This document shows, piece after piece, positions 19,775-35,359 of a DNA stretch of 64,000 nt. Position numbers and translations under genes: made by a program. The stretch's first letter is position 1, and each line of letters starts with the position of its first letter. This stretch comes from Candidatus Iainarchaeum sp. (GTDB lineage Archaea > Iainarchaeota > Iainarchaeia > Iainarchaeales > JAFCCW01), in contig JAFCCW010000004.1 in NCBI GenBank assembly GCA_017609985.1, forward strand, positions 1 through 64,000. The letters run 5' to 3'. A model generated the notes under the pieces. That model was not told the DNA's origin and ran no database searches. It saw only the letters and a list, made by a program, of their open reading frames with translations.

Positions 19775-20191
19775 TCACCTTGCACCAAGAGTTTTGCTTA
19801 CTTCTTCAAGTGTCATAAATCTTTTCTGTTCATGATTTTTTGCCTGTTCTGGTCTTTCAAATTCTTCTATTTTTTCTCCTTCTGGAAGTCCAATAAAAAC
19901 CTTCACAAGAGATAATGCTTCCCGTCCTCTTTTACTATTTGTTGGAAGCATTCCTTTCACAGCATTTCTCAACATCCTGTCAGACATTTTGGAATATTTT
20001 GGGCCCTTCAGTGGGTTTCCTTTTGCAGCTCTGTTCATTCTGGTTCTGTATTTTCCAATTATTCCATTTCTTGTTCCAACAACAACAGCTTTTTCTGCAT
20101 TCACAATAATAACAGTTTCTCCTTCAAGAGCTTTTTTTGCAGTAAGAGACGCAAGTCTGCCCATCACAAGATTTTCAGCATTGATTTTCAT
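19775..20191 (-). CDS. rpl13: ribosomal protein L13 (uL13)
   Basis: GRLAS, VNAEKAVVVG, VKGMLP. Confidence 0.96.
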   Translation of the reverse strand: MKINAENLVMGRLASLTAKKALEGETVIIVNAEKAVVVGTRNGIIGKYRTRMNRAAKGNPLKGPKYSKMSDRMLRNAVKGMLPTNSKRGREALSLVKVFIGLPEGEKIEEFERPEQAKNHEQKRFMTLEEVSKTLGAR

Positions 20192-20547
20192 CCAATAATC
20201 ACCATTTCACTTGGTTTTGTTTCTGATTCAACAAGCTCTTTTAGTGTCATAAACTTTCCTTTTTTTTCAATTTCTTTTTTTGCTCTTTCGCTAAATCCAA
20301 AAGCAGCAATAGTAATTTCGGAAGTAAGCTCTCCCTTTCCAAGAACTTTTCCAGGCACAATAACTGTTTTTCCTTTTAGCTTCTCTGCCATAGTGTCAAG
20401 TTTCCAAAGATTAATTTTTATTTCTCCTCTTCTTCTCTTCTTCAGCCTTTCAGCTAAATCAAGCCATATTTTTTGCTTGGATTGCCTTCCTTTTTTTTCA
20501 AGAACAGCAATTGTATTTCTTGCATAGTTTCCTTTTTCTGAAATCAT
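20188..20547 (-). CDS. rpl18e: ribosomal protein L18e
   Basis: IWLDLAERL, INLWKL, VPGKVLGKG, FSERA. Confidence 0.95.
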   Translation of the reverse strand: MISEKGNYARNTIAVLEKKGRQSKQKIWLDLAERLKKRRRGEIKINLWKLDTMAEKLKGKTVIVPGKVLGKGELTSEITIAAFGFSERAKKEIEKKGKFMTLKELVESETKPSEMVIIG

Positions 20548-20591: not shown

Positions 20592-20714
20592 TGCAGGGGG
20601 GGAGATTCGAACTCCCGAAGGCACTAAGCCACAGGATTTCTCAAACCCTTGCAATAAAAACACTAATTCAAGGCATCTTAAGTCCTGCCCGTTTGACCGC
20701 TTCGGTACTCCTGC
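20592..20714 (-). tRNA. tRNA-Leu(TAA) with 39-nt intron at 37/38 (20638-20676)
   Basis: GCAGGAG...CAGGA CT TAA G|intron|A TCCTG; long variable arm; GGGAG TTCGAAT CTCCC; conserved rpoD-tRNA-Leu-L18e position. Confidence 0.93.
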
Positions 20715-20759: not shown

Positions 20760-21512
20760 TTAGCTTAACTTTTTCACCTCTTTTTTGAAATCATTTACTT
20801 TTGCTTCAAGTACTTCAATTGAATTCTTAATAATTTCTGCTGTTGAAAGAGAACCAGTTGACTCAATTGACAAAACAAATGAATCTTTCTCTGGCAAAAT
20901 CTCCAAAGCATTCTTTTTGCACACATCTCTGCATTCTCCACAGAGAGTGCATTCAATACTATCTTTTAGAATAATTTTTCCTGATTTTTCTTCAATTAAT
21001 CCTTTTGGACAAGCTTTAATGCATTCCTTGCAAAGATTGCAGTCCTTTGTAGTGGTCAATGCTGCTGTCTGCTTGAATCCAATTATTGCTGACTGCCATT
21101 TAACATGTTCTCTTCCGGTTTCCATTATTGCTGTTGCTTCAAGTTTTATTTTATCTCCTTTCTTAAGTTTAACAATTGGAATTTTTTTGTCACTAACCTC
21201 TATCTTGGGATCAGTACTTTCAAGGTCTCCGCTGTACACTGTTCCAGGCCCTTCTTTTTCAAGCAAGAGCTTCATGCTGTCTCCCTGCTTGTAAGACTTT
21301 GAATCAGTCTTCAGAGGAATCATTGCAAGCCTGTGAGCAACCATTTCATCAAACATTACTGAATCATTGTCGTAGAATGAAACAGTCTCTATTGCAAGAA
21401 CAGGCACAGAGTTCATTGAAATTCTTCTAATTGCATTAATCAAAGCAGGAGTTGTTCCTGTGACAAAAAATCTTTCCGAGTTTCCAATCGGGGCAATTTT
21501 TTTCATGTTCAT
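20760..21512 (-). CDS. rpoD: RNA polymerase subunit Rpo3 (RpoD) with ferredoxin-like Fe-S domain
   Basis: NAIRR, VPVLAI, DEMVAHRLAMIP, HVKWQ; CNLCKECIKACP and CTLCGECRDVC. Confidence 0.96.
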   Translation of the reverse strand: MNMKKIAPIGNSERFFVTGTTPALINAIRRISMNSVPVLAIETVSFYDNDSVMFDEMVAHRLAMIPLKTDSKSYKQGDSMKLLLEKEGPGTVYSGDLESTDPKIEVSDKKIPIVKLKKGDKIKLEATAIMETGREHVKWQSAIIGFKQTAALTTTKDCNLCKECIKACPKGLIEEKSGKIILKDSIECTLCGECRDVCKKNALEILPEKDSFVLSIESTGSLSTAEIIKNSIEVLEAKVNDFKKEVKKLS

Positions 21513-22090
21513 TTTCTTTTCCCCCTGAATCTTTTCTTTTTTCTGCAGCCATCATGTGGCATTGGCGTAACATTTTTAATTGTAATAATTCTTAAACCAT
21601 TCCTTGTTAGGCTTCTGATTGCTGCTTCACTTCCCTGTCCAGGAGAATTACTCTTGTTTCCCCCAGGTCCTCGCACACGCACTTCAACTTCAAAGATTCC
21701 TTTTTCTCTTGCTTCGTTTGCAATATTTTCTGCAATCTTCAAAGCAGCATATGGTGAACCTTCTTTGTGCTGGCTTTTAACAACCTTTCCTCCTGAAGAG
21801 TTTGCGATTGTTTCAGCACCAGTCATGTCAGTAAGTAAAATATTAGTGTTATTGTGTGAAGCAAAAATATGAATAATTCCTCTCTTTCTTTGGGTTCCTG
21901 TTTGAGAAGGAGCTGGTTGACGTTCAGGGGATTTTTCTTCAGGTGCTTTCTCAGCAACAACAGGCTTTTTCTCAACAGCTTCAGGCTTTTTTTCAGCAAC
22001 AGCTTTTTCTGCTATTGACTTGTCTGTTTTTTTGTCTTTCTTTTCAACTGCCTGTTTTGTGACTTTAGTTTTTTCTTTTTCTTCACTCAT
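21509..22090 (-). CDS. rps11: ribosomal protein S11 with ~65-aa N-terminal K/E/P extension
   Basis: HIFASHNNT, TDMTGAET, SPYAA, PGQGSEAAIRSL, VTPMPHDGCR. Confidence 0.96.
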   Translation of the reverse strand: MSEEKEKTKVTKQAVEKKDKKTDKSIAEKAVAEKKPEAVEKKPVVAEKAPEEKSPERQPAPSQTGTQRKRGIIHIFASHNNTNILLTDMTGAETIANSSGGKVVKSQHKEGSPYAALKIAENIANEAREKGIFEVEVRVRGPGGNKSNSPGQGSEAAIRSLTRNGLRIITIKNVTPMPHDGCRKKKRFRGKRK

Positions 22091-22886
22091 TTGCGTCACC
22101 TTTTTTGTCCTCTGTATCTACTTTTTCTTCTTTCTTTTCTTTTTTCTCTTCAGTTTTTTGCACAGGCTTTATTTCTTTTTCTGCTTTTTTTTTCTTGTCT
22201 GTTTCTGGTTTCTCTTTTTCTTCTTTCTTTTCAGAACCAGTTTTTTCCTGCTTGACTTCCTTTTCCTTTTTTTCAACTTCTTTCTCGCTTGTTTCTTTTT
22301 CAACAGTCTTTGCTACTGTTTCTTCTTTTTGTTCTTCGTCAGGAAGAGCTTCTTTGAATTCTTCTTCCCCTGTCTTTTTTGTTTTTACTGGTTCTGGCTG
22401 TTCCAAAACCATTTTATCTTTCCAGTAGTTAATGCTTTTTTCGTCCTCTCGTTTCACGAGCAAACTAGGAGCATCAACTTTTCTTCCGTTAATTGCAATA
22501 TGGCCGTGTGTAATAAACTGTCTTGCCTGTATTGGGGTAAGAGCAAGCCCTTTTCTCCAAACAATTGTCTGAAGTCTTCTTTCCAAAACGCTTTCAACAG
22601 ACAATGACAACACATCATCAAGTTTTGCATCCTTTTCAAGTATTCCCATCGTATACAGGCTTCCCAAAAGTTCTTTTTCTCTTTGAAGTCTGATTTCAAG
22701 TTTAAGAGCAAGCAATTTTCTTGCATTGTTTCTTTTCTTTCTAAGAATTGTTTCAGTTCTCCACAATTCTTTCTTATTTTTCAAGCCATAAAGCTTTTTC
22801 AGCGCCTTCTCTGACTCAAGCCTTGTTTTTTCCCAAGGCTTTTTAGGCCCTTCATAATGTTTTTGAGTCTTTCTCGGATCTCCCAC
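22083..22886 (-). CDS. rps4: ribosomal protein S4 with ~100-aa K/E tail
   Basis: MGDPRK, YGLKNKKELW, LERRLQT, ARQFITHGHI. Confidence 0.97.
   Translation of the reverse strand: MGDPRKTQKHYEGPKKPWEKTRLESEKALKKLYGLKNKKELWRTETILRKKRNNARKLLALKLEIRLQREKELLGSLYTMGILEKDAKLDDVLSLSVESVLERRLQTIVWRKGLALTPIQARQFITHGHIAINGRKVDAPSLLVKREDEKSINYWKDKMVLEQPEPVKTKKTGEEEFKEALPDEEQKEETVAKTVEKETSEKEVEKKEKEVKQEKTGSEKKEEKEKPETDKKKKAEKEIKPVQKTEEKKEKKEEKVDTEDKKGDANE
22173..22337. repeat. copy 1 of tail-module repeat (in rps4)
   Basis: Core 22194-22329 matches 34613-34748 at 135/136 nt. Confidence 0.92.
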
Positions 22887-22898
22887 TATATCTCACCT

Positions 22899-23456
22899 TT
22901 ATTTTTTTGTTTTTCCTGCTTGCTTTGTAGCCTGTTGTGAAGCTGATTGTTCTTTTGCTTTTCCGCCACCGCCGCCTTTTGCATCTCTCTTATGGACACC
23001 AACAACTCTTCCCTTTCCTCTAAAACTGCTTCTGGTTCTCTGTCCTCTTACAGTCAAACCCCAACTGTGTCTTAGACCGCGATAGCTTTTGATTTCATTA
23101 AGTCTTTTAATATTTTGTCTTAATCCAAATTCCAAGTCTCCCATAACCCAGTGCTGGTCTTTTCCGGATTCTCTTTCATTTCTCTGATTAATCATCCATT
23201 CAGGAATTCCGTGCTTTCCAGGGTTTAAAACAATATCTTCCAAAATCTTGTCCTGGTCTTCTGGAACCTTTCCAAGTCTCGCATCTGCTTTAGTACCAGA
23301 CTCTTTTTCAAACTTTGACGCAACAACTCCCGCATATCTGTGGCTTACACCTCTTATTCCGCGCAATGCCTGAATTATTGGCTTGTTACCGTCCAAGTCC
23401 TTTCCTGCAATTCTAACAATATATCTTATTTCTTCTTTTTGTTCTTGTTCCGCCAT
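22899..23456 (-). CDS. rps13: ribosomal protein S13
   Basis: IVRIAGKDLDG, IPEWMIN, SYRGLRH, VRGQRTR. Confidence 0.97.
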   Translation of the reverse strand: MAEQEQKEEIRYIVRIAGKDLDGNKPIIQALRGIRGVSHRYAGVVASKFEKESGTKADARLGKVPEDQDKILEDIVLNPGKHGIPEWMINQRNERESGKDQHWVMGDLEFGLRQNIKRLNEIKSYRGLRHSWGLTVRGQRTRSSFRGKGRVVGVHKRDAKGGGGGKAKEQSASQQATKQAGKTKK

Positions 23457-23460
23457 AAAA

Positions 23461-23685
23461 TCACTTCAGTGCTTCTACAATCTCCTCGTGCTTTGTTCCT
23501 TTTTTAATGTCTATTTTTTCTCCAGTAAAAAACAAGTGTCTCATATTGCACTTTTTCTTTTTCATTCCGTCGCCGTCAATTACTGCAGTCAATGTTTTTT
23601 CATCAATCTCAATAACTACTGCTTTTTGTCCAGCATTTTTTCCAGCAAGTTTGTAACATACTGCTCCAGTTTTTATTCCACTCAT
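23461..23685 (-). CDS. rpl14e: ribosomal protein L14e
   Basis: GAVCYKLAGKNAGQKAVV, KKCNMRHL; synteny. Confidence 0.9.
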   Translation of the reverse strand: MSGIKTGAVCYKLAGKNAGQKAVVIEIDEKTLTAVIDGDGMKKKKCNMRHLFFTGEKIDIKKGTKHEEIVEALK

Positions 23686-24161
23686 TTCAATTCACCTAAA
23701 CTCTTTTTTACCAAAGCAATTGCTCCATCATCTTTTATTTTTTCAAGACTAACCACAAGATCGTATCTGCTCAAATCAAAAACATCAATTCCCTTTGCTT
23801 CAAGCATTGCATTTCCAATATTTTCTTCAAGTTCTTCCAGCATTGAAACTGCTTCCACTTCACTAATATTTTTTGAGATCGCGAGATTCTTTGCTCTGTT
23901 CTTTTCTGAGGAAAGCAAAAACACGCTTAATTCCGGTTTAACTATTGCTGGAGCAATAATTCCTTCCACTAATTTTCCTTTTTGAATTTTTTCTTTAATA
24001 ATTTCCTCCATTTTCTCAGCGGATTCCTTGTCTGAAACAATCACGTTGCTTTCTTTTCCAAGTTCTTCCTCTGAAACAAAGTTTAATCCAAGTTCTAGTG
24101 AAAGAGCTTTTCCAAGCTTTTTTGTATGAGTTCCAGGATAACCGCTAAGAGTAATAATCAT
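23682..24161 (-). CDS. cmk: cytidylate kinase-like protein with degenerate P-loop
   Basis: MIITLSGYPG..., LVEG, GIDVFDLSRYDLVV; occupies the cmk position between L34e and L14e; Walker A GKT missing. Confidence 0.75.
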   Translation of the reverse strand: MIITLSGYPGTHTKKLGKALSLELGLNFVSEEELGKESNVIVSDKESAEKMEEIIKEKIQKGKLVEGIIAPAIVKPELSVFLLSSEKNRAKNLAISKNISEVEAVSMLEELEENIGNAMLEAKGIDVFDLSRYDLVVSLEKIKDDGAIALVKKSLGELK

Positions 24162-24493
24162 TTCTTTTCACCCTTAACCATGTATTTTCTAATCTTAATG
24201 CTCACGTCTTCAACACTTTTTGCTTTTGAAACAACTTTTGCTGTTTCCTCTGCAAGATTTCTTCTGCATTCTCCGCACAGCACTCCGCCATGCTTTGCAG
24301 TAGGCCTCTTTTCTGATTTTGAAAGCTTCAAAATATCACTTTTTGGCTTGTGGTTAGGTACTCCGTGAAGTGGCTTTCCACACAGTCCGCACGATTGCTT
24401 TCCAGGTGTTCCTCTTTCAAAGACTCTTTTACTTTTTCCCTTAGTAGTCTTCCTGAACTTTTTCTTTTTTGTTCTGTCGCCTGGTTTAACCAT
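24158..24493 (-). CDS. rpl34e: ribosomal protein L34e
   Basis: CGLCGKPLHGVP, KSEKRP, GGVLCGEC. Confidence 0.95.
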   Translation of the reverse strand: MVKPGDRTKKKKFRKTTKGKSKRVFERGTPGKQSCGLCGKPLHGVPNHKPKSDILKLSKSEKRPTAKHGGVLCGECRRNLAEETAKVVSKAKSVEDVSIKIRKYMVKGEKK

Positions 24494-24986
24494 TCTGAAC
24501 ACCTTTTGCTTTTTCAAATATCTTTAAACCAATGCCCACGAGAATATTCATTGTAAGATAACTCACAAAATACCATCCAAACCAACTGGTTTCACTATAA
24601 AATGTAAATGCAAAGAATCCTTGTTCTGCAAACCAAGGCAATGCAACAGGCAAGGCAAATGGTTCAAATTGAGTATAAAACATTCCCAGCAAATAAAATG
24701 CTATGAGAAACACTGGCAATGAAATCATCATATATCTCATGCTTGTCTGCATACTCTTCTGCATTGTCTCCATCATTTCCTTGTTTATCTGTTCAATCTC
24801 CTGCTTGCTTTTTTCATCATCCTTACCCATAAGTTCTTTAACACGATTTTGCTGTGTCTTCATTGTTTCTCTATCTTGCTTCATCTGAGCCTTGTTCATA
24901 AATTTTGACTGCATTACTTTGGAAACAATTACTAATACGGCAGATATCATAACGATATCAATGCTTGGTGAAATAAACGGAATCAT
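24486..24986 (-). CDS. DUF106 / EMC3-TMCO1 family (Oxa1 superfamily) insertase
   Basis: TM, coiled coil, Met-rich TM, WFGWYF motif; downstream of secY. Confidence 0.88.
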   Translation of the reverse strand: MIPFISPSIDIVMISAVLVIVSKVMQSKFMNKAQMKQDRETMKTQQNRVKELMGKDDEKSKQEIEQINKEMMETMQKSMQTSMRYMMISLPVFLIAFYLLGMFYTQFEPFALPVALPWFAEQGFFAFTFYSETSWFGWYFVSYLTMNILVGIGLKIFEKAKGVQNG

Positions 24987-25098
24987 CTTTATCCCTCTAA
25001 AACCATTTCCAAAAAGTTGGAGCCCAAAAAGCAGGTTTTGTGGCTATAACTATTATTTCCGCATGGAATACTATATAAATGCTTTGTTGTCATCTCAT

Positions 25099-26508
25099 TC
25101 ACCCTAACAGTTTTCCCAGCATTGGATGCATTTCTGCTAACTGGCTCCTTGCAAGTTCTTCATAAAGTCTGTAAACTATTCCAACTGTAAGCAAAATTCC
25201 CATTCCACTCACTAGTGTTCCAAGAGACATGTCTCCCAAGCCAGCTAAAAGTCCAACAAAAACTGAACCCAAAATTGTTATTGTCGGAATATATCTGTCA
25301 AGAATTCCCTTAATTATTCTCTTGTCTCGTCTGAATCCAGGAATATACATTCCGCTACTCTGCAACTGCTCTGAAATTGCTTCCGGACCCTGTCCACCCA
25401 TTTGAACCCAGAATTTTCCAAACACAATACATGCTGAAATAAGTATTGCTAAATAAACAAGTGCGTGTCCAAGAGCAGGAGCCATAATCATTAAACCATT
25501 AATTGGTCCTTCAGCAATAACCCTTAGTACAAGATCCTGAATTAAATTATAAGGAGATGTAGTGGCCCAGGCAAGGAATCCAAGAATTCCCCCAGTATCT
25601 GGTGCTGCTGGAAGAAACTCTAGTCCGTTTCCAATTATTGGAATTCCTGCAGTCATCATGCTCCAAATTCTCACGTTTGCAAAAAGTGCTGCTGCAAGAA
25701 TAACCGGCATGTTAGAAACGTAAAGCAGTTTAACTGGAAATCTGCCCCCAGTTCCGCGTCTTCCCATAGTAATTGGAATATTTACATGCATTCCCTCTGC
25801 GAAAACAATTATTATAAAAATTGCCAAAGCAATAATTACTGGAATAAGTGAAATAAAGTCAGCGCTTCCTGAAGCAATGCTCGAGATAAATCTTGAAATA
25901 ATTCCTCCCTGAATTCCAGCAAGAGCTCCAACTGGCGGGGCAAAAACCTGCCAAAAGAATGCTCCTGAAACTCCGCCTGCAATAAACAATCCTACTCCTG
26001 AGCCAATCCCGTGCTTTGAAACAAGTTCATCTAAATAAAGCAGTATAAGCGAACCAAGAGCAACCTGTAGCACTATCACGAGAAGCATTCCCTCCATTGG
26101 CTGAAGAAGACCTGATGCAGTGTAAACAAATGCTTCAAAAAAGCAAAGCACTATTGCGAAAAGCTTTTGAAGCCCCTGAAATCTTGCCTTGTCTTTTGGA
26201 TTTGACAAATCAATGTCAAGAATTTTTCCACCGACAAGAAGCTGCAAAATGATTGATGCAAGAACAATTGGGCCAATTCCAGCACTAATTAAGGAACCTG
26301 TATTGCTTGCAAGAATAGTCTGCATTTGAGCAAGAACAGCTCCTCTCTCTGCTGAAAGACCTATTAGTTCAATGTTTCCCATTATGAAAAACAACAACAG
26401 TGCAAGAGAACTCCATACTAATTTTTTCTTGATGCTTGGCTCTGTTTCAGGCGCCTTTATTTCTGGCAACACACTGTAAACAGGTTCCAAAATATCAAGA
26501 ATTCCCAT
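25099..26508 (-). CDS. secY: preprotein translocase SecY
   Basis: GIGPIVLASIILQLL, GIGSGVGLFIA, PVKLLYVSNMPVIL, IPGFRRD. Confidence 0.98.
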   Translation of the reverse strand: MGILDILEPVYSVLPEIKAPETEPSIKKKLVWSSLALLLFFIMGNIELIGLSAERGAVLAQMQTILASNTGSLISAGIGPIVLASIILQLLVGGKILDIDLSNPKDKARFQGLQKLFAIVLCFFEAFVYTASGLLQPMEGMLLVIVLQVALGSLILLYLDELVSKHGIGSGVGLFIAGGVSGAFFWQVFAPPVGALAGIQGGIISRFISSIASGSADFISLIPVIIALAIFIIIVFAEGMHVNIPITMGRRGTGGRFPVKLLYVSNMPVILAAALFANVRIWSMMTAGIPIIGNGLEFLPAAPDTGGILGFLAWATTSPYNLIQDLVLRVIAEGPINGLMIMAPALGHALVYLAILISACIVFGKFWVQMGGQGPEAISEQLQSSGMYIPGFRRDKRIIKGILDRYIPTITILGSVFVGLLAGLGDMSLGTLVSGMGILLTVGIVYRLYEELARSQLAEMHPMLGKLLG

Positions 26509-26519
26509 GCTCTAACACC

Positions 26520-27098
26520 TTAAGCTTTCTTTTCCTCTTTGCCTTTGTTATCTTTACTATCTTTACTTTCAGTTTTACTTTCTTTAACTGCCTTTGCAGG
26601 CTCTTCTTTTTCTTCAATTGCTTGTTCTTCATTGATTTCAGCAGAAGTTTCTTCTTCAAACTCTTCCAGTTCTTCTTCTGCTTCTTCTCCTGCGTCTCCA
26701 CCAGCTTCCAAAATCTTTTCAATAGCAGACTTGCTTGCTTTAATGTTAACAAGTTTTACAGGCACTGTGATTTTTCCTTTTCCAAGAATCTTATCAATGT
26801 CTGTTTTTATTCCATCAAAGACATACATTTTTCCATGCTTTTCAATTTCTTTGGATTTTTCAAGCTTTTCAATAATCGAAGAAATATCTTCAACATTAAT
26901 AGTTTTTTCAGTATTCTTTGGCTTCAATGCTGGTTCTTTTCCAAAGCTATCATAGTACTTGCTGTACTTGTGCTTGTGTGATCCAGCTCTTCCTCTTCCG
27001 CCTCGGCAACCTGCTCCGCGTTTATTCTTTGTATCACCTTTTCCATGCGATCTATTTCCACGAAGCTTGTTTTTCTTTCTAATCCTTCTTGTTACCAT
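26520..27098 (-). CDS. rpl15: ribosomal protein L15 with acidic/K tail
   Basis: RGNRSHGKG, RGAGCRGGRGRAG, KILGKG, SKSAIEKILEAGG. Confidence 0.96.
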   Translation of the reverse strand: MVTRRIRKKNKLRGNRSHGKGDTKNKRGAGCRGGRGRAGSHKHKYSKYYDSFGKEPALKPKNTEKTINVEDISSIIEKLEKSKEIEKHGKMYVFDGIKTDIDKILGKGKITVPVKLVNIKASKSAIEKILEAGGDAGEEAEEELEEFEEETSAEINEEQAIEEKEEPAKAVKESKTESKDSKDNKGKEEKKA

Positions 27099-27107
27099 AA
27101 AACTCAC

Positions 27108-27566
27108 CTAAATCATTTTCTTTATCAGCAGGTTTATGTCTGAAGCCCTGTATCCAAGTGCTCCTCCAACTGTATAACTTTTCTTTATTCCTGCTCTTTC
27201 ATAACCTTTTTTTGGAGGCCTTAATCTGAACACAGGTTTTATTCCAAGTTCCTTAAGCTTTTTTCCAGCAATTACTGTTTCAGCTAATTCTTTGAAATCT
27301 TTAATCTTGCTTTCTTTGAAGAATTCTTCTCCAATTTTTTTGTTTCCCGCTAGTCTTCCTCTTTTTTCAAGAACTGCTGCAAGAGTTTCTGCAGTAATTT
27401 CACCAAAAGTAACATAGTTTTCTGTTTTTCTCAGCATGCTTCTGTTTTGTTTGTTTTCTTCAGAAACAACAAGATGATTTACTCTTGTTAAACGGAGCAA
27501 TTCCATTGTCTTTTTTATGTCAGGTTTTATGTTAACATTTCCTCTGACTCTAACAACTGCGTACAT
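27108..27566 (-). CDS. rpl30: ribosomal protein L30 (archaeal uL30)
   Basis: AVVRVRG, PVFRLRPPKKG, GGALGYR. Confidence 0.96.
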   Translation of the reverse strand: MYAVVRVRGNVNIKPDIKKTMELLRLTRVNHLVVSEENKQNRSMLRKTENYVTFGEITAETLAAVLEKRGRLAGNKKIGEEFFKESKIKDFKELAETVIAGKKLKELGIKPVFRLRPPKKGYERAGIKKSYTVGGALGYRASDINLLIKKMI

Positions 27567-27572
27567 CTTTTA

Positions 27573-28289
27573 TCACTCTTTCCTTCCTGTTGAAAACTTT
27601 TTTGAAATATCTTCTGAAATTCTCATTTTTGCTGTTTTTGAAAGTGCATCAATTGCAGCTATTGCAAAATTAATTGTTGTTTTTGTTGCGCCAGAAGTAT
27701 TGCTCCAAACATCTTGGATTCCTGCAAACTCTAAAACCTTTTTTATATTGTCTCCTGCGACAAGTCCAATTCCTTTTGGCGCAGGGATAAGTGTTACGCG
27801 AACTGAAGCGCATTTTCCCTCTACTTTGAAAGGAACTGAATGCTGATCATTGCATGGGCACTCCCAGCTTCCACAGCCTCTTTTTATTCTAACCAAATTT
27901 AATCTTGCTTTTCTTTTAGCTTTGTCTATTGCAGGCCATTTGTCTGTATCCTTTGCAGTTCCAAGCCCCACAAGACCGTTTTTGTTTCCAATAAGCACTG
28001 ATGTTCTGAAAGCAAATTTTCTTCCAGCTCTCACAACTCGAGAAGTTTTCTTAATATCAATTATTTCTTCTTGCATTTCCACTAGATAATCAACTATTTC
28101 TGGTTCAAGAATTGAAATATTCTTTTCAAATATTTCATCAATGGAAGTAATTTCTCCATTTTTAACTTTTTTTCCCAAGCTTGTTTTTGGAACCCAGTTG
28201 GTGAGCATAGCTTCCTTGTTCTTTTCATCTTGCTCTCTTCTGCTTTCTTTTCTTCTCGCTTCTCTTTTTGTTTTGTCATTCTCAGTCAA
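27573..28289 (-). CDS. rps5: ribosomal protein S5
   Basis: WVPKTSLG, RGCGSWEC, HSVPFKVEGK, PAPKGIGL. TTG start chosen from the SD; alternative ATG at 28301. Confidence 0.96.
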   Translation of the reverse strand: MTENDKTKREARRKESRREQDEKNKEAMLTNWVPKTSLGKKVKNGEITSIDEIFEKNISILEPEIVDYLVEMQEEIIDIKKTSRVVRAGRKFAFRTSVLIGNKNGLVGLGTAKDTDKWPAIDKAKRKARLNLVRIKRGCGSWECPCNDQHSVPFKVEGKCASVRVTLIPAPKGIGLVAGDNIKKVLEFAGIQDVWSNTSGATKTTINFAIAAIDALSKTAKMRISEDISKKFSTGRKE

Positions 28290-28294
28290 CTGAA

Positions 28295-28873
28295 TCACCA
28301 TTTTTTATTTGAAATCTTTTCCTTTACTTCTTCAAATTTTTTTGAGATATTCTTCACGTCAAAACCTTCTTTTACATAGCGTGAAAATCTTTTATTAAAC
28401 TCTTCTTCCCCAAGCTTTTCCACATATTCTTCAATATGCTTGCCTGAAACCCTGTTTGGATCAGCCAATGCTTTTTCGTCGTGCGGAATATTCATTCCAG
28501 CGTCAATTGCTCCCTTTAATGCTGCAAAAGGGATACTTCCGTGAACCGGTGCTCGAAAGCCAAGGTCAAATACTGCTTCTTTTGCATTATTCTTGATTGC
28601 AATAAATCCGCAAGCAAAACCTGTCAGATAAGCACTTGGAATATTTCTTGAACCAACCCATCCGAATTCATCAAGCTTTTTTGAATTAAATTCTGCAACA
28701 ATCTTATCCCCGTGTTTTTGCATTTCAATAGCCTGAACCTTTACTCCAGTATTTGAGTCTCTGACAACAAGTCTTATTTTTCCAGACTTCACAAGAGCTA
28801 GTCTCTTCTTATAATTTGTTTTTCCCTCTCTTCTTCTTCTGAATTTTACACTAAACGTTGCCTTGTTTGCCAT
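28295..28873 (-). CDS. rpl18: ribosomal protein L18 (uL18)
   Basis: RRRREGKTNY, RLVVR, NIPSAYLTG, GAIDAG. Confidence 0.96.
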   Translation of the reverse strand: MANKATFSVKFRRRREGKTNYKKRLALVKSGKIRLVVRDSNTGVKVQAIEMQKHGDKIVAEFNSKKLDEFGWVGSRNIPSAYLTGFACGFIAIKNNAKEAVFDLGFRAPVHGSIPFAALKGAIDAGMNIPHDEKALADPNRVSGKHIEEYVEKLGEEEFNKRFSRYVKEGFDVKNISKKFEEVKEKISNKKW

Positions 28874-28881
28874 AAAAACAC

Positions 28882-29325
28882 CTACTTATTTCCTTTCACA
28901 TAAGATTCAACATATTTTTTTCCTCTGAAGAACCCGCCTTTAATTTTTCTGTACACATTTGAATAACCTGCTTTTTCAACATCTTCAGGACTTTCTGCTC
29001 TTAATTCTCTTAATTTTCTTCTCTGAGCTCTTACATTTTTTATCCAAGTCTTCTTTTTGTTAGTTCTTGCTTTTTTTGTTCCCTTTCTTTTTCCAGGGCC
29101 TTTCTTTCTTCCTGCTGCTTTTTTGACCTGAAGTTTTCTTGCTCTTGACCTGCTTTGCCCGTTAACTTCCTTTTTCTTTATTGCTCCTTCTTTAATCAGT
29201 TCTCGAATGTCATCTTTTGTAATGACTTCGCTGATTTTTTCTCCCTGTACTGGGTCAAGCCATATTCTGTTTCTTCCTGTCTTCAGCACTCGGGCTGCAA
29301 TGCTTTTAACTTTGTCCAGATCCAT
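28882..29325 (-). CDS. rpl19e: ribosomal protein L19e
   Basis: RIWLDP, GPGKRKG, WIKNVRAQR, YRKIKGGFF. Confidence 0.96.
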   Translation of the reverse strand: MDLDKVKSIAARVLKTGRNRIWLDPVQGEKISEVITKDDIRELIKEGAIKKKEVNGQSRSRARKLQVKKAAGRKKGPGKRKGTKKARTNKKKTWIKNVRAQRRKLRELRAESPEDVEKAGYSNVYRKIKGGFFRGKKYVESYVKGNK

Positions 29326-29329
29326 AAAC

Positions 29330-29878
29330 TCACCTATTTAGTACAACAATTCCTTTTTTTCCAGCTTCTTTTACGATTCCAATTCTTTTCTTTTTTCCAA
29401 CAGTTCCGCTAATTCTTGCAGCTTCTCCTTCCTTCAAAGCAACAAGTTCTTTTGGGTTGTTAACTAATACTTCCCTGTAACCAGACGGGTGCAAGCCTCT
29501 AACTTCTTTTGCAGTTCTATAACCTGTTTTTGGCATTGCTCCATCCTCTTTTCTGTTAAGCACGTCAATTCCTCTTGGCTTTCTCCACTTCTGCCACTTC
29601 TTATTGCTCTTTCTTCTAAACTGTTTTTTTCCAAATCTTCCTCTAAAAATTGGAAGTTTTTTCTTTTTCTTAATCTTTGTTTGAAGTTTTTTAACTGATT
29701 CTGGTTTTTTAATCTTTTTTGATTTTGGCTTTTCTAAAGTTTTCTCAGTTTTCATAGGTGCTTGTTTTTCAGTTTTTGGACTAGCCACTGTCTTTGAAAC
29801 AGGCTCTTTTTCCATTTTGGAAATTGTTTTCTTGGTTACTGCTATTTTATTATCTTTTGATGGCTTGTCTTTACTCAT
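29330..29878 (-). CDS. rpl32e: ribosomal protein L32e with ~65-aa N-terminal extension
   Basis: WRKPRGID, GYRT, RGLHPSGY, VGKKKR. Confidence 0.95.
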   Translation of the reverse strand: MSKDKPSKDNKIAVTKKTISKMEKEPVSKTVASPKTEKQAPMKTEKTLEKPKSKKIKKPESVKKLQTKIKKKKKLPIFRGRFGKKQFRRKSNKKWQKWRKPRGIDVLNRKEDGAMPKTGYRTAKEVRGLHPSGYREVLVNNPKELVALKEGEAARISGTVGKKKRIGIVKEAGKKGIVVLNR

Positions 29879-30443
29879 TGTCTTCACCCTTTGTTTCTTC
29901 TTCGTTCTTCAAAAATCCTTTTTCAACAAGATATATACCGTCCTGAAAAATTCTAGTATCCCTATTTTTTATCCTTGTAGCCTGTTCAAGATTTGCTGAA
30001 GTCTGGCTTACACGTTCCTTATTGATTCCTGAAACAGTGATGTCCTTCCCCTTAATTTCAACCTTGACTCCTGGCCTGATTTTTGCAATTCTTGGCTTTT
30101 TTTCTCCTGCAAAATTGTTTATTTCAACATTTTCTCCCTGCACTACAATGTTCATTGGAAAGTGAGAAAAAACAACTGAAAGCTTGTATTGAAATCCTTT
30201 CTCAAGACCGTCAATAAGATTGGTAACATGCGTTTTGAAAGTTTTTACAAGAGCTCTTACTCCCCTGGTATCCGGTTTTCCTCTGATTGCGATTGAGTTC
30301 TTTTCAGGAACAAGCATAACATTTGCTGATTCAAACACATAGCAGTTTTCTTCTCCGCCTTTCTTCAGGCAGAGCTTTTTGCCATGTATTTCAAATTCTA
30401 TTCCTTCAGGAATCTCAATTTTTTCTTCGTAAATCTCAATCAT
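29871..30443 (-). CDS. rpl6: ribosomal protein L6
   Basis: SHFPM, NFAGEK, QTSANLEQ, RDTRIFQDGIY. Confidence 0.96.
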   Translation of the reverse strand: MIEIYEEKIEIPEGIEFEIHGKKLCLKKGGEENCYVFESANVMLVPEKNSIAIRGKPDTRGVRALVKTFKTHVTNLIDGLEKGFQYKLSVVFSHFPMNIVVQGENVEINNFAGEKKPRIAKIRPGVKVEIKGKDITVSGINKERVSQTSANLEQATRIKNRDTRIFQDGIYLVEKGFLKNEEETKGEDNE

Positions 30444-30452
30444 TTTATTCAC

Positions 30453-30845
30453 CTAGTAAACAAACGCAAGAAGTCTTCCTCCAACGCCGTTTTCTTTTGC
30501 CTGCTTGTGAGTAAAAACTCCTTTAGGAGTTGTTACTATGATGATTCCAACATCCTTTGAAGGAAGATATCTTTTTTCATATTTTTCAAATTCGTCTTTC
30601 TTAACAGCATATCTTGGCTTGATTGCCTTGCATGCATTAATTGTTCCGTTAAGTTCAACCGTGAAAAAACCTTCTCTTCCGTCTTCCACAAACTTGAAAT
30701 CTCCCACATATTTTTCTTCTTTCATGACATTAAGGATTTCTCCAAAGAGCTTGGACGCAGGCCTACAAATACATTCTTTTTTTGAAGCAAGGTCACTGTT
30801 CTTAATGTTCACAAGTGCATCTGATATTGGATCAACTAAAGTCAT
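30453..30845 (-). CDS. rps8: ribosomal protein S8
   Basis: DPISDAL, AIKPRY, EKRYLP, TTPKG, GGRLLAFVY. Confidence 0.97.
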   Translation of the reverse strand: MTLVDPISDALVNIKNSDLASKKECICRPASKLFGEILNVMKEEKYVGDFKFVEDGREGFFTVELNGTINACKAIKPRYAVKKDEFEKYEKRYLPSKDVGIIIVTTPKGVFTHKQAKENGVGGRLLAFVY

Positions 30846-30854
30846 TCTGTCACC

Positions 30855-31004
30855 TCACCCAAACTTCCTGAAGCCAAGATCTATTGCTATTTCTTTAAAA
30901 CATCTTCTGCAGATTTTCAGACCATATTTGCTGATGACTCCTCTTTTAGTCTTGCAAATTCTGCACTCTGATGGCTTCTTTTTCCCAGTCTCTTTTTCAG
31001 TCAT
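30855..31004 (-). CDS. rps14: ribosomal protein S14 (zinc-binding type; not in ORF track)
   Basis: Manual translation MTEKETGKKKPSECRICKTKRGVISKYGLKICRRCFKEIAIDLGFRKFG; between L5 and S8. Confidence 0.95.
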   Translation of the reverse strand: MTEKETGKKKPSECRICKTKRGVISKYGLKICRRCFKEIAIDLGFRKFG

Positions 31005-31498
31005 GCAATTTCAACTCCAAACTTTTCTGTAATAAACTCAATTGCTTCTTCTCGTGAAACACAATGCTTTCTTCCAACTTTTTTCTTTCCTATTTTTCTT
31101 TTCTTAATTCTGTATCCTGCTCTCTCAAGAGAAACAAGAACATCAAATCCCTTTATCCCAAGCTCTGGTTCATACTTAATGTTTGGAAGATCAATATACT
31201 CTTTGATTCCAAATCCGAAATTTCCATTTCTGTCAAAATTTTTTCCCGCAAGCATGTTTTCTTTTGCAAGAAAAGCTTGTTTCAAAAATTCAACAGCATC
31301 AGTTCCTCTGAGAGTAACCTTTGCTCCAATCGGAAGACCAGGCCTGATATTTAAAGTTGGAGCCTTTACTTTGCAGAGAGTCTGAATAGGCTTTTTTCCA
31401 GTGATTTTTTTCAAAATCTTGATTGCTTTTTTCAGCTCTTCACCGCTTTCGCCAACACCCATGTTGACTGTGATTTTTCCAACTTTAATGTCTTTCAC
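31001..31498 (-). CDS. rpl5: ribosomal protein L5
   Basis: KITVNMGVGESG, PIGAKVTLRG, FDRNGNFGFGI. Confidence 0.97.
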   Translation of the reverse strand: MKDIKVGKITVNMGVGESGEELKKAIKILKKITGKKPIQTLCKVKAPTLNIRPGLPIGAKVTLRGTDAVEFLKQAFLAKENMLAGKNFDRNGNFGFGIKEYIDLPNIKYEPELGIKGFDVLVSLERAGYRIKKRKIGKKKVGRKHCVSREEAIEFITEKFGVEIA

Positions 31499-31500
31499 TT

Positions 31501-32238
31501 TTACTCACCTTTTGTCTCCAGTCCCTTTAATTCAACACTTTTTTCTCCAACAATAAAAATTTTATCCTTTACTGTCAAAAACTCGTCTCCATCCTTTGGT
31601 TTCAAGGAAATAAGTGGAGGTCGCTTCATTGTTCCAGTCTGCACCCGCAAAACAGTTCCTATTGTTGAAACACGTCTTCCCCCTGTTACAATAGCTGTGT
31701 TTCCCTCAACAAGCTTGAAAATTTTTACAATTTTTTGGTTTGGAAGCTCTATCTTTAGCACGTCTCCTGTTGAAATTTCATTCTTGTCATCTGAAAATAT
31801 TCTTCCATCCTGGCTCTCAACAACAATCTTGTTTTTTGCGACTGTTTTTTTGCCAGTTATCTTGCATAGTTTGGATGACTTTTCTTTGAAATCCAATTCT
31901 CTTACTTCAAATCGTCCGAGTTTGTCAAGTGCAAGTAGATATTTTTTCTTTATTTTTTCAATTGTAATTATGTCAAAAAGACCAACCGGAAACCTGTAAT
32001 CTTTTCTTACAACTTCATCAACTTTGACTTCCTGATTTTTAAGCACAATTCTTGTTTCTCTTAGATTATCTGTCAACCCAAGCAAGTTTCTGACAACAAA
32101 TCCTAATGGCACGCTTTCTTCTCTAGAGTGCGGTCCTGGATTTGAACGAATTGTCCAAGTACTTTGTTTTCTTTCAATCTTTCTGGACTTACTTGTACTA
32201 AGAGTTTTTTCCGCTGTTTTTCCGCCTTTTTTACCCAT
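31501..32238 (-). CDS. rps4e: ribosomal protein S4e
   Basis: PGPH, PVGLFD, DGR, VTGG. Confidence 0.95.
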   Translation of the reverse strand: MGKKGGKTAEKTLSTSKSRKIERKQSTWTIRSNPGPHSREESVPLGFVVRNLLGLTDNLRETRIVLKNQEVKVDEVVRKDYRFPVGLFDIITIEKIKKKYLLALDKLGRFEVRELDFKEKSSKLCKITGKKTVAKNKIVVESQDGRIFSDDKNEISTGDVLKIELPNQKIVKIFKLVEGNTAIVTGGRRVSTIGTVLRVQTGTMKRPPLISLKPKDGDEFLTVKDKIFIVGEKSVELKGLETKGE

Positions 32239-32243
32239 AAATA

Positions 32244-32732
32244 TCACGCCTTCTTCTTTTTGCCTGAGTTTTCCTTTTTTGTTTCAGTTTTCTTTTCAGT
32301 CTTTGCTTCAGGTTTTTTTGCTTTCTTTTCAGTATTTTTCTCTACTTTTTCAGATTTTTTTTCAATACTCTTTTTTGAAATCTTCTTTCCTCTCTTAAAT
32401 CTTTTATCATCATCTCTTTCAATTTCCAAAACAACAATATTTGAAGGATTTATTGGAACAAGAATTTCTGTTCCGTCTGATTTCTTTCTGATAATTTTTT
32501 CAATATAAATTCTTGCTCTTTCCCTGTTAATTCTTGAAATTTTTCCCTCTTTACCTTTTTTGCTTCCCCGCACAATCTTTACTTTATCTCCTTTTCTAAG
32601 CGCTATGCTTCTTTTTTCAAGTTCTTTTCTCAATTCTTTTGACAAATGGCCTGAAACTCTGCTGGTTTGATGGTGCAGAGGCATGTTGTAAAATACTTTT
32701 CTCTGTTTTGAAGGTTTGCTACTTTTCATCAT
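32244..32732 (-). CDS. rpl24: ribosomal protein L24 (uL24) with K/E tail
   Basis: SSKPSKQRK, LSKELR, RKGDKVKIVRG, INPSN. Confidence 0.96.
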   Translation of the reverse strand: MMKSSKPSKQRKVFYNMPLHHQTSRVSGHLSKELRKELEKRSIALRKGDKVKIVRGSKKGKEGKISRINRERARIYIEKIIRKKSDGTEILVPINPSNIVVLEIERDDDKRFKRGKKISKKSIEKKSEKVEKNTEKKAKKPEAKTEKKTETKKENSGKKKKA

Positions 32733-32738
32733 AAACAC

Positions 32739-33137
32739 CTAAACTATTGACGAGGCAAGACCTGCTATTTTTGGCCATCTTTCTCCAACCTCTTTTGCTA
32801 CAGCTCCTTTTATTTCAGATGCTTTTGGAAGACCTTTTTCATCCACTAGCACAACTGCATTGTCTGAAAATTTTATTCTGGTTCCATTAGCTCTCTTAAA
32901 TTCTTTTTTTGCTCGAATAATAATTGCTCTTTCAACTTTTTTTCTCATTTCAGGTTTTCCCTTTTTTACAACAACATTAACTACATCGCCGATTCCTGCT
33001 TTTGGATTCATTCTTCTCTTTCCCCTAAATCCGAAAACTGAAATAATCTCAACTTCCTTGGCTCCGGAATTATCTGAACAGACACATCTGCTTTTTTGAG
33101 TCAAGCTTTTTGCTACTGACGCGCTTATTGCTTTCAT
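32739..33137 (-). CDS. rpl14: ribosomal protein L14
   Basis: DNSGAK, KKGKPEMRK, FSDNAVV, GAVAKE. Confidence 0.97.
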   Translation of the reverse strand: MKAISASVAKSLTQKSRCVCSDNSGAKEVEIISVFGFRGKRRMNPKAGIGDVVNVVVKKGKPEMRKKVERAIIIRAKKEFKRANGTRIKFSDNAVVLVDEKGLPKASEIKGAVAKEVGERWPKIAGLASSIV

Positions 33138-33186
33138 TTTTTATCGCCCTTTTTTTCTTCGATTTTTTCTTTTTTTACTTCTTCTT

Positions 33187-33552
33187 TTATTGAGTCTTTA
33201 TTTCAGGCACTGACTCGGATTTTTTTTCCTTCATTTTTTCTTCCTTTACTTTATCTACTTTTTCTGCTTTTTTCTCAATTGACATAACAACAAAGCTTTT
33301 TGTCTTGCTAAGCCTTCTTGTTTCACCAACAGTTACAATGTCACCCTCGCCTGCAGCAATGCATTCAGGGTTATGAGCATAAATTTTTGAAGTGAATTTT
33401 TTGTATCTTTCATACTTTGGAATCTGTCTTATAAGTGTTCTTGTAATCACTACAGTGCGATGTGGCTTTGCGCTGACAACTGTTCCAGTAAACATATTGC
33501 CTCTTATTTTTAGTCCGCCATGCACGGGACATTTTTTGTCATTGCATTCCAT
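33187..33552 (-). CDS. rps17: ribosomal protein S17
   Basis: CNDKKCPVHG, IPKYERY, AHNPEC, ETRRLSKTKSF. Confidence 0.96.
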   Translation of the reverse strand: MECNDKKCPVHGGLKIRGNMFTGTVVSAKPHRTVVITRTLIRQIPKYERYKKFTSKIYAHNPECIAAGEGDIVTVGETRRLSKTKSFVVMSIEKKAEKVDKVKEEKMKEKKSESVPEIKTQ

Positions 33553-33847
33553 TTTTTTTCCTCCAAAATTCCTTAATCCTGTTTTCTGGTTTTTCTTCAA
33601 TAAACTTTCCATCAATCCTAACTCTTTCTTTTCCCAATAAAAACTCTATTACAACTTCCCTTTTTGGAATAATTTTTTCGCCTGAACCTGTTTCAACAAC
33701 AAGAGTGTTTTTTGTTTCATCAACAACTCTTCCGCACAACCCTTTTCTTGAGCTTTCCTTGCTTTCCAAGACCTTTACTTCAAGTCCGATAAGCTCGTGT
33801 GCTCCAAGGTTTTCTTTTGTTATGCGATATTGCTGTGATTCAAGCAT
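33539..33847 (-). CDS. rnp1: ribonuclease P protein Rpp29/Pop4
   Basis: HELIGLEVKV, GRVVDETKNTL, IPK, PENR. Confidence 0.93.
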   Translation of the reverse strand: MLESQQYRITKENLGAHELIGLEVKVLESKESSRKGLCGRVVDETKNTLVVETGSGEKIIPKREVVIEFLLGKERVRIDGKFIEEKPENRIKEFWRKKNGMQ

Positions 33848-34142
33848 CAATCAATTCCTCCTTAAATCCTTTTTTTATCAGGAAATCTTTAACTTTTTTC
33901 AGATGGTTTCCCTGCAGTTCAATTTCATCATCTTTTATTGTTCCTCCACAAGCAAACTGCCTTTTCATTTCCTTTCCAAGCTCCTGAATGTTTGCATCTT
34001 TTTCTATTCCATTTACCGTAGTGACAATTTTTCCAAATCGTCTTCTTACTGTTCTAACTTTTATTTTTGTCGATTCTTTTGCGATTTCACTGCAGACACA
34101 AAGCGACTGCGGCATTCCACATTTTTGGCAAACTCCACTCAT
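33840..34142 (-). CDS. sui1: translation initiation factor aIF1 (SUI1)
   Basis: CQKCGMPQSLCVC, RRFGK, FACGGT, IELQGNH. Confidence 0.95.
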   Translation of the reverse strand: MSGVCQKCGMPQSLCVCSEIAKESTKIKVRTVRRRFGKIVTTVNGIEKDANIQELGKEMKRQFACGGTIKDDEIELQGNHLKKVKDFLIKKGFKEELIDA

Positions 34143-34372
34143 TCGCTTTTACTCACCTCTGGTTTTTTCTTTATTTCAATTTCATTAAGAATTGTAAGCG
34201 TTCTGGCAATTTCTCTCCTATTTTTTCTGATAATTCCCGGATTCTCCGGCCTGGTTCCTGAAGAAATCAGAGCACGTTCCTTTGAGAGTTCTTGCTTAAT
34301 TGTCACTATTCTCTCCTTAAGCTCTTCTTCGCTCATTGCTCTCAAATCTTTTGGTTTAATCTTTTTTGCCAT
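34139..34372 (-). CDS. rpl29: ribosomal protein L29
   Basis: DLRAMS, PENPG, RREIARTLT. Confidence 0.95.
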   Translation of the reverse strand: MAKKIKPKDLRAMSEEELKERIVTIKQELSKERALISSGTRPENPGIIRKNRREIARTLTILNEIEIKKKPEVSKSE

Positions 34373-34378
34373 TCAAAA

Positions 34379-35359
34379 TCACTCTTTTTTATCTTCTTTC
34401 TTGTCTGTTTTCTTTTCTTCTTTTGCTTTTTCTTCGTTCACTATTTTATTTTCTTTCTTTGTTTCTTCTTTTTTCTCGTTCTTTTTTTCCTTTGCAGGCT
34501 CAGACTTCTCTTTTTTTACTTCTTCTTTTTTTGGCTCTTCTTCTTTCTCATTTTCCTTTTTCTTCTCTTTCTTTTCTTTGTTTTTATTGTCTTCTTTTCC
34601 TGCTTTTTTTTCCTTGTCTGTTTCTGGTTTCTCTTTTTCTTCTTTCTTTTCAGAACCAGTTTTTTCCTGCTTGACTTCCTTTTCCTTTTTTTCAACTTCT
34701 TTCCCGCTTGTTTCTTTTTCAACAGTCTTTGCTACTGTTTCTTCTTTTGGTTCCTCTTTAGACATTACATCTGCAATATTAACCTTGTCAGGAAACACTA
34801 CTTCTGGTCTGATAATCCTAAGTTTTATTCCAATAGCGCCTGCTTTTGGATAAGCTGATGCTTTTGCATAATCAACTAATTCAGTTTGAGCTCCAACTTT
34901 TTTCATATAACCGCTTGCGATTCTGTGTTTTCTTTTTCTTCCGCCTTTTCCAGCAAGCTTTCCTGAAAATACTAATTCTATTCCCTGTGCCCCTGCACTC
35001 TGAATATCTCTGACTGATCTGAAAGCAACACTTCTCCAAGAGAAACCTCTCTCAATCAGGGAAGTCATTTTGTCAACCATTGCTTTTGCATTAAGCTCTG
35101 GATTCTCGATTTCTTTTATTTCCAACTGTGGGTTTTCAAATCCAAATTGTTCTCCTATTTCTTCAGTCAAGCGTCTGATATTCTTTCCGCCTTTTCCAAT
35201 TGCAAGGCCAGGGTGAGTAACATTAAGCACAATTCTTGTAACAAGCGGAGTTTTCACTATGTCAAGGTGAGTGAAGCCCGCTCCATCAAGCTCTTTCTTA
35301 AGGTATCTTTCAAGTTCAACCTTTTTGATTCCTTGTTTTATAAAAACTCTTTCAATCAC
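34379..35359 (-). CDS. rps3: ribosomal protein S3 with ~130-aa K/E tail
   Basis: KH domain PGLAIGKGGKNI, PELNA, GIELVFSGKL, GAIGIKLRI. Confidence 0.97.
   Translation of the reverse strand: MIERVFIKQGIKKVELERYLKKELDGAGFTHLDIVKTPLVTRIVLNVTHPGLAIGKGGKNIRRLTEEIGEQFGFENPQLEIKEIENPELNAKAMVDKMTSLIERGFSWRSVAFRSVRDIQSAGAQGIELVFSGKLAGKGGRKRKHRIASGYMKKVGAQTELVDYAKASAYPKAGAIGIKLRIIRPEVVFPDKVNIADVMSKEEPKEETVAKTVEKETSGKEVEKKEKEVKQEKTGSEKKEEKEKPETDKEKKAGKEDNKNKEKKEKKKENEKEEEPKKEEVKKEKSEPAKEKKNEKKEETKKENKIVNEEKAKEEKKTDKKEDKKE
34592..34756. repeat. copy 2 of tail-module repeat (in rps3)
   Basis: Direct repeat of 22173-22337, offset 12419 bp. Confidence 0.92.

Follow-up and report, generated by a model that had tools for sequence, protein, structure and literature searches.

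We analysed a 64,000-nucleotide (nt) stretch of DNA from Candidatus Iainarchaeum sp. (contig JAFCCW010000004.1 of assembly GCA_017609985.1, positions 1 to 64,000; hereafter the window, which is contig C34 of the genome), in which the genes for two unrelated ribosomal proteins, uS4 and uS3, share a nearly identical piece of tail-coding DNA. The window represents a conserved archaeal supercluster of ribosomal-protein genes, which all lie on the minus strand. The first gene, rps4 (22083–22886, minus strand), encodes the 267-amino-acid (aa) protein uS4, with a Pfam S4 domain at residues 103–149 (E = 2.7e-14); its core runs to about residue 170 and is followed by a 97-aa tail rich in lysine and glutamate (K/E-rich). 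The second, rps3 (34379–35359, minus strand), encodes the 326-aa protein uS3, with the Pfam domains KH_2 (4.1e-14) and Ribosomal_S3_C (1.7e-14), a core to about residue 200 and a 126-aa K/E-rich tail. The neighbours of rps4 are the genes for uS13 and uS11, and those of rps3 the genes for uL22 and uL29. The stop codon of rps4 overlaps the start of the uS11 gene, whereas rps3 ends 6 nt ahead of the uL29 start.

A direct repeat in two copies links the two genes. A repeat search placed it at 22173–22342 and 34592–34761 (170 nt, 96% alike, spacing 12,419 nt; all coordinates are those of the window unless another contig is named), and comparison of these 170 nt base by base gave seven mismatches, at 22180, 22193, 22285, 22330, 22335, 22338 and 22340. 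Within the repeat lies a segment of 55 codons (165 nt), with copy A at 22173–22337 and copy B at 34592–34756, both on the minus strand and differing at five positions. The core of the segment, 22194–22329, is identical to the other copy at 135 of 136 nt. An earlier note on this DNA, made from its letters alone, had claimed just this identity and about 165 base pairs with five mismatches, and our comparison agrees with it. The longest exact runs common to the copies measure 91, 44 and 12 nt; the bases that distinguish them include 22285/34704, 22193/34612 and 22180/34599.

Both copies are read in frame, as the earlier note had stated for these two unrelated genes 12.4 kb apart, and encode EE(Q/P)KEETVAKTVEKETS(E/G)KEVEKKEKEVKQEKTGSEKKEEKEKPETDK(K/E)KKA(E/G)KE. 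Copy A corresponds to residues 184–238 of 267 in uS4, and copy B to residues 202–256 of 326 in uS3. The segment thus lies within both tails as described, but it is not appended at their ends: it sits inside longer tails, each of which consists of degenerate short tandem repeats with periods of 6–36 nt.

The likeness stops abruptly at the edges of the segment. Beyond the 165 nt, the uS3 and uS4 tails align at 67–71%, the level of any two local purine-rich stretches, and the drop is immediate on both sides. We rejected a longer homology: blastn gave a gapped match of 220 nt at 89%, and the added part was no better than off-diagonal low-complexity alignments. In the 1.16-Mb genome (38.8% G+C) only these two near-identical copies occur, the next best match being 74% over 91 nt, and the pair forms the genome's largest repeat without contact to a contig end.

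We compared this arrangement with that in relatives, all of them related at the level of the order. Matches to uS3 and uS4 were found in 41 of 41 genomes each (40 relatives and this genome), and the named relatives of the two proteins are metagenome-assembled genomes (MAGs) of 'Candidatus Diapherotrites', 'Micrarchaeota' and 'Iainarchaeum', which marks the present genome as that of a DPANN archaeon. The two genes lie about 11–12 kb apart in all 33 relatives that have both matches on one contig. We counted a tail from the point in the alignment that corresponds to residue 200 of uS3 or residue 170 of uS4. So measured, a uS3 tail (26–163 aa) is present in each of the 29 relatives with a fetched uS3 locus, and a uS4 tail (22–111 aa) in each of the 29 whose uS4 locus was fetched; in both proteins the tails are K/E-rich and often rich in alanine. 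In an alignment of 40 uS4 sequences the core is conserved and is followed by a short KKEFEEAxP-like motif, beyond which the charged tails cannot be aligned. Together these patterns suggest that what matters in the tails is their composition and length, not the exact order of residues.

While such tails are general, a segment shared between them was seen in this genome only among those compared. Here the longest stretch of peptide that the uS3 and uS4 tails have in common measures 30 aa; in the 26 relatives with both tails it measures 2–7 aa and in none exceeds seven residues. As a control we paired uS3 and uS4 tails across genomes (n = 702), which gave a mean of 4.0 aa and a maximum of 9 aa; the relatives' own pairs are no different. 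These comparisons, with the 74% next-best match in the genome, bear out the earlier claim that the match is not a product of compositional chance.

The same picture holds at the DNA level. We compared the ribosomal-protein cluster with itself in 34 regions (33 relatives and this genome; 672 kb). At a threshold of at least 45 nt and at least 88% identity, a coding repeat between two ribosomal-protein genes appeared in this genome only. The relatives contributed four repeat matches of at least 45 nt, which we rejected as shared tails, since each is non-coding or adjoins a run of N. They stem from a non-coding element in three copies (locus L068), from hairpin-like repeats separated by 141 nt (L072) and from a duplicate next to a run of N (L075). 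The L068 element (G011:C28, 2907–2974, 5762–5812 and 10795–10855) is an observation of its own: its 50–68-nt copies are 88–92% alike, all three lie in the ribosomal-protein cluster, and one directly precedes the start of uL2. The element may serve as a promoter or leader, or may be a small repeat; its genome, G011, is the best-scoring relative in both the uS3 and the uS4 searches. In L075 (G005:C7, 1425–1634), the Ns lie where the uS11 gene begins and are flanked by a 55-nt exact duplicate, which is probably a scaffolding or masking artefact and not biology.

Wider searches returned no further copy. Pattern searches gave 586 matches in metagenome_contigs and 599 in genome_contigs, of which none was confirmed in either collection. 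Among 5.8 billion proteins, with each protein's own two-sequence cluster represented by one member, no other uS3 or uS4 with the segment was found; the closest uS4 elsewhere matches at 66% identity and over the core alone, and in a tail-focused search the best other match to the uS3 tail region scored 99 bits against 232 for uS3 itself. None of 803 candidates scored among short protein fragments (query uS3 residues 170–280) reached E <= 0.001. A position-anchored comparison of the segment with 114 uS3 tails and 74 uS4 tails produced no outlier. The search of genome and relatives that the earlier note had proposed as a check therefore ends with two near-identical copies in the genome and none in the relatives.

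Before interpreting the repeat as biology, we weighed whether an assembler could have threaded one copy into the contig, through low-complexity k-mers or strain mixing, while the real genome has the segment at one locus. The assembly is of the metagenome type (37 contigs, 86.6% complete, 2.97% contamination), and many short purine-rich words are common to both tails, which both speak for such an error. Against it, gene order and reading frame are intact at both loci, including the conserved downstream neighbours (uS4–uS11 and uS3–uL29), and the copies differ at 5–7 positions. The longest exact run, 91 nt, is moreover shorter than the overlaps between contig ends. Such overlaps occur in eight pairs of contig ends and always measure 114 nt, at 100% identity (for example C34:1–114 and C18:70366–70479), from which the final assembly k was probably about 115. 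At that k, which exceeds the 91-nt run, every k-mer crossing the repeat would be locus-specific and the two paths would be distinct in the graph. As a separate observation, many of the contigs could be joined via these 114-nt overlaps.

Sequencing data from a related strain bear on the same question. A search of public sequencing runs for the stretch found three DNA runs of one study, which we call X1, X2 and X3, and no RNA run. Only run X1 covers part of the stretch (share of sampled words 0.18). Its Logan contigs come from a related strain, with about 4–8% other letters in the long pieces. One of its contigs (depth 8.7) carries substitutions at 22347 and 22367, in sequence unique to uS4 and 52 and 72 letters from the contig end, as well as a 12-nt deletion at 22320. 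From these marks, the contig runs from unique uS4 sequence about 25–37 nt into the segment, and so bridges the two in another strain. For X2 no pieces could be placed on the stretch, and X3 gave short low-complexity pieces only. Overall, misassembly is unlikely, and we would give the single-locus version of it a chance of a little under one in ten.

If both copies are real, their likeness could reflect either recent common origin or selection on the peptide. The five differences between them comprise one synonymous and four non-synonymous changes, over 28.7 synonymous and 136.3 non-synonymous sites. The corresponding proportions of changed sites are 0.035 (pS) and 0.029 (pN), a pN/pS of 0.84, with low power from only five substitutions. 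Because synonymous and non-synonymous sites are equally alike, the likeness of the copies points to recency and not to selection on the peptide. By this comparison of the two sequences, low in power as it is, the copies appear to diverge in a neutral-looking manner, as expected of drift following a recent copy and contrary to what a conserved peptide tag would lead one to expect.

Structure prediction gave no fold for the tail. An AlphaFold2 model of uS4, built from the 40-sequence alignment, has a core with a predicted local distance difference test score (pLDDT) above 90 and a tail, from residue 170, at 37–57; residues 184–238, which correspond to copy A, score below 50 and have no secondary structure. 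For uS3, a single-sequence model is of low quality throughout (mean pLDDT 45), with the tail drawn as coil; we used it only to say that no structure is predicted in that tail. The tails are thus predicted to be disordered. They are presumably translated and would project from the small subunit as flexible polyampholyte chains.

These observations also speak to the idea, raised in the earlier note, that the segment is a functional docking tag. In the ribosome, uS3 and uS4 adjoin at the mRNA entry site and line the entry channel. Selection could in principle have kept an identical peptide on these two neighbours for a common partner or RNA, and the in-frame, near-identical copies and the long tails on both proteins throughout the order would suit such a role. 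However, the peptide occurs in no relative's uS3 or uS4 and nowhere else in the two contig collections, four of the five changes alter residues at a pN/pS of 0.84, and the region is predicted disordered in uS4. No conserved docking motif was found across the uS3 and uS4 orthologues. Nor are K/E-rich tails peculiar to these two proteins. In the window, K/E-rich extensions outside the Pfam domains, all on the minus strand, are found on uS11 (21509–22099; a 73-aa N-terminal extension, also rich in alanine, ahead of the Ribosomal_S11 domain at residues 74–192), uL15 (26520–27107, C-terminal), eL32 (29330–29887, about 85 aa, N-terminal), uL24 (32244–32738, C-terminal) and uS17 (33187–33615, C-terminal). 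Genome-wide, 36 stop-to-stop frames contain a 40-aa window with at least 55% lysine plus glutamate, these five proteins among them. Such tails on many proteins are not specific to the mRNA entry channel. PMC7005279 contains no occurrence of 'uS3', 'uS4' or 'entry channel'. With no sequence conservation in the relatives' orthologues, no sign of purifying selection and no predicted fold, the tag is an explanation to which we give very little credence.

A further possibility is that the segment is an in-frame mobile repeat, comparable to the Rickettsia palindromic elements or to intragenic hairpins of the repetitive extragenic palindromic (REP) type. Its in-frame position in both genes is what such an element would show, but the other properties of the segment do not fit. 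It has only two copies in the genome and no confirmed copy in the two contig collections. As single-stranded DNA, the segment, whose coding strand is purine-rich, folds weakly, at -7.6 kcal/mol for the 165 nt with a single stem of 6 bp (z = -2.15; equalled by 5 of 200 shuffled sequences), and we found no palindromic core. Neither copy matches an Rfam family; between 20000 and 37000 the only match above the gathering threshold is a transfer RNA (tRNA) at 20592–20714. We therefore consider a mobile element hardly credible here.

We propose instead that the segment arose by a recent ectopic copy, or gene conversion, between the low-complexity tail-coding DNA of rps3 and rps4, and that the copies have since diverged neutrally; we put the probability of this reading at roughly three in four. 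The earlier note had offered a recent copy-paste or gene conversion of a disordered-tail cassette, and this suggestion fits every test we made: the boundaries are sharp, pS (0.035) is close to pN (0.029), relatives lack the segment, and the region is predicted disordered.

In the mechanism we envisage, a piece of 136–165 bp coding for part of a disordered K/E-rich C-terminal tail would have been copied between the 3' parts of rps3 and rps4. The partners would be two co-oriented, purine-rich, low-complexity coding regions 12.4 kb apart, and the copying would be non-allelic, either by ectopic gene conversion or by template switching at flanking GAA/AAA-rich microhomologies. The end points of the tract do lie in GAA/AAA microhomology. 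The copied peptide would have been tolerated because the tails are presumably constrained in composition and not in sequence, and the five substitutions would have gathered afterwards at a neutral-looking ratio.

The position of the repeat would also limit what recombination can do with it. Between the copies (22338–34591, all minus strand) Pfam names 22 genes: uS13, a KOW protein, a cytidylate-kinase-like protein, eL34, an EMC3/TMCO1-like membrane protein, SecY, uL15, uL30, uS5, uL18, eL19, eL32, uL6, uS8, uL5, eS4, uL24, uL14, uS17, RNase P p29, aIF1/SUI1 and uL29. Eighteen of them are counted as ribosomal proteins, beside SecY, RNase P p29, aIF1/SUI1 and the EMC3/TMCO1-like protein. The earlier note had reasoned that a direct repeat bracketing essential genes could not lose them without lethal effect, and with this gene content the reasoning is sound. 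Were the direct repeats to recombine with each other, about 12.4 kb of essential genes would be lost, and only outcomes of the gene-conversion type would then be expected to survive.

As to which gene was the donor, the tail lengths of the relatives overlap both an insertion and a replacement scenario and fit either direction. In P0122, the uS3 closest to this one among those found (75% identity over 218 aa), the tail start resembles the start of the segment. We rejected this as a sign of the donor: its score of 16 falls within a background of 119 uS3 tails (mean 11.3, maximum 18), and in the position-anchored comparison it ranks 8 of 114. The nearest uS4 (P0002) was rejected likewise, with a score of 10 that is not significant.

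Several points weigh against a recent ectopic copy as we have framed it. Since four of the five differences fall no more than 21 nt from an edge, the true tract may be limited to the 136-nt core, and an edge stretch alike at 19 of 21 nt could be compositional, with a chance of about 3% at 70% background identity by our estimate. The selection test rests on five substitutions and has little power. Independent support covers a single junction, one of the uS4 copy and in another strain; the other three junctions have no such support, and the X1 contigs show nothing clear for the uS3 copy. If the uS4 of that related strain carries the segment, the copy predates a strain split of 4–8%, and with a divergence between the copies of 0.7–3% this would imply either repeated conversion or a uS4 donor with a recent copy into uS3. 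Finally, none of the 33 relatives shows the same process in the cluster, which would make it rare in the order.

Beyond the single event, a wider possibility can be sketched, which we offer tentatively and think improbable, at odds of perhaps one to three. The disordered K/E-rich tails of DPANN ribosomal proteins could form a shared pool: ectopic recombination would repeatedly swap stretches of tail-coding DNA among ribosomal-protein genes that are not homologous, so that the tails evolve in concert and selection acts on composition and length only. On this view the uS3/uS4 segment would be a large and recent case, in which repeated conversion may have preserved the likeness from a time before the related strain in X1 split off.

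Other features of the window stand apart from the repeat. The aIF1/SUI1 gene (33840–34142, minus strand; Pfam SUI1, 2.9e-22) lies between the genes for uL29 and RNase P p29 in the ribosomal-protein cluster. On the far side of the uS11 gene, the gene for RNA polymerase subunit D (Rpb3-like; 20760–21512, minus strand) encodes a 4Fe-4S dicluster domain at residues 148–204, an ordinary feature of this subunit in many archaea. Between it and an open reading frame at 20188–20547 lies the tRNA match already mentioned (20592–20714, minus strand; Rfam RF00005, 39.7 bits). Because this match spans 123 nt against a model of 71 positions, the tRNA gene probably contains an intron.

The segment is of interest as a dated, clean example of how a disordered extension can grow in essential and highly conserved proteins. 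DPANN archaea have tiny genomes and carry unusually long charged tails on many of their ribosomal proteins. If copying of this kind is common among them, it would explain why the composition of the tails is conserved and their sequence is not, and it would caution against reading shared tail peptides as functional motifs. Such repeats are also traps for assembly, and for phylogenies that concatenate ribosomal proteins with untrimmed tails.

How does the segment compare with known systems? Passages of the review PMC11764897 treat terminal extensions of ribosomal proteins. The uS3 and uS4 tails resemble these as long terminal extensions on universal ribosomal proteins; the extensions in those passages differ in being structured or in contact with ribosomal RNA, in networks of the eukaryote type. 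A term search of that review gave no match to 'DPANN', 'glutamate' or 'uS4'. Among full texts, in a coverage that leaves out most subscription journals, we found no literature on K/E-rich tails of DPANN ribosomal proteins or on the exchange of tails between ribosomal-protein genes.

The closest parallel is gene conversion. In prokaryotes, duplicated genes such as tufA/tufB and the ribosomal RNA operons undergo concerted evolution by gene conversion. Ectopic conversion between dispersed repeats is likewise known for paralogues (PMC6053082). The uS3/uS4 tract shares the marks of this process: its two copies match each other far better than they match the corresponding positions in relatives, its ends are sharp, and its synonymous identity equals its non-synonymous identity. 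In contrast to the classical case, in which paralogues are homologous over their full length, uS3 and uS4 are unrelated in fold and in sequence, and their prior likeness was limited to purine-rich low-complexity coding DNA. With unrelated partner genes, the event would stand closer to a segmental copy or a template switch between disordered-tail regions.

Two further processes invite comparison. Rickettsia palindromic elements and REP-like hairpins are short pieces of DNA that sit in frame within essential genes, including those of ribosomal proteins, and add a tolerated peptide. The uS3/uS4 segment is similarly a short in-frame piece in essential ribosomal-protein genes, but it has no palindrome, exists in two copies, and occurs neither between genes nor in other genomes. 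Low-complexity and intrinsically disordered regions, for their part, evolve by slippage, which acts locally. The tails described here resemble regions driven by slippage, being degenerate tandem repeats whose length and sequence vary freely among relatives while their composition is kept. Unlike local slippage, however, the event proposed here moved a piece of 136–165 nt over 12.4 kb into another gene. It suggests that local slippage is not the only route by which disordered extensions grow, and that ready-made low-complexity coding DNA can also be copied in from a different gene.

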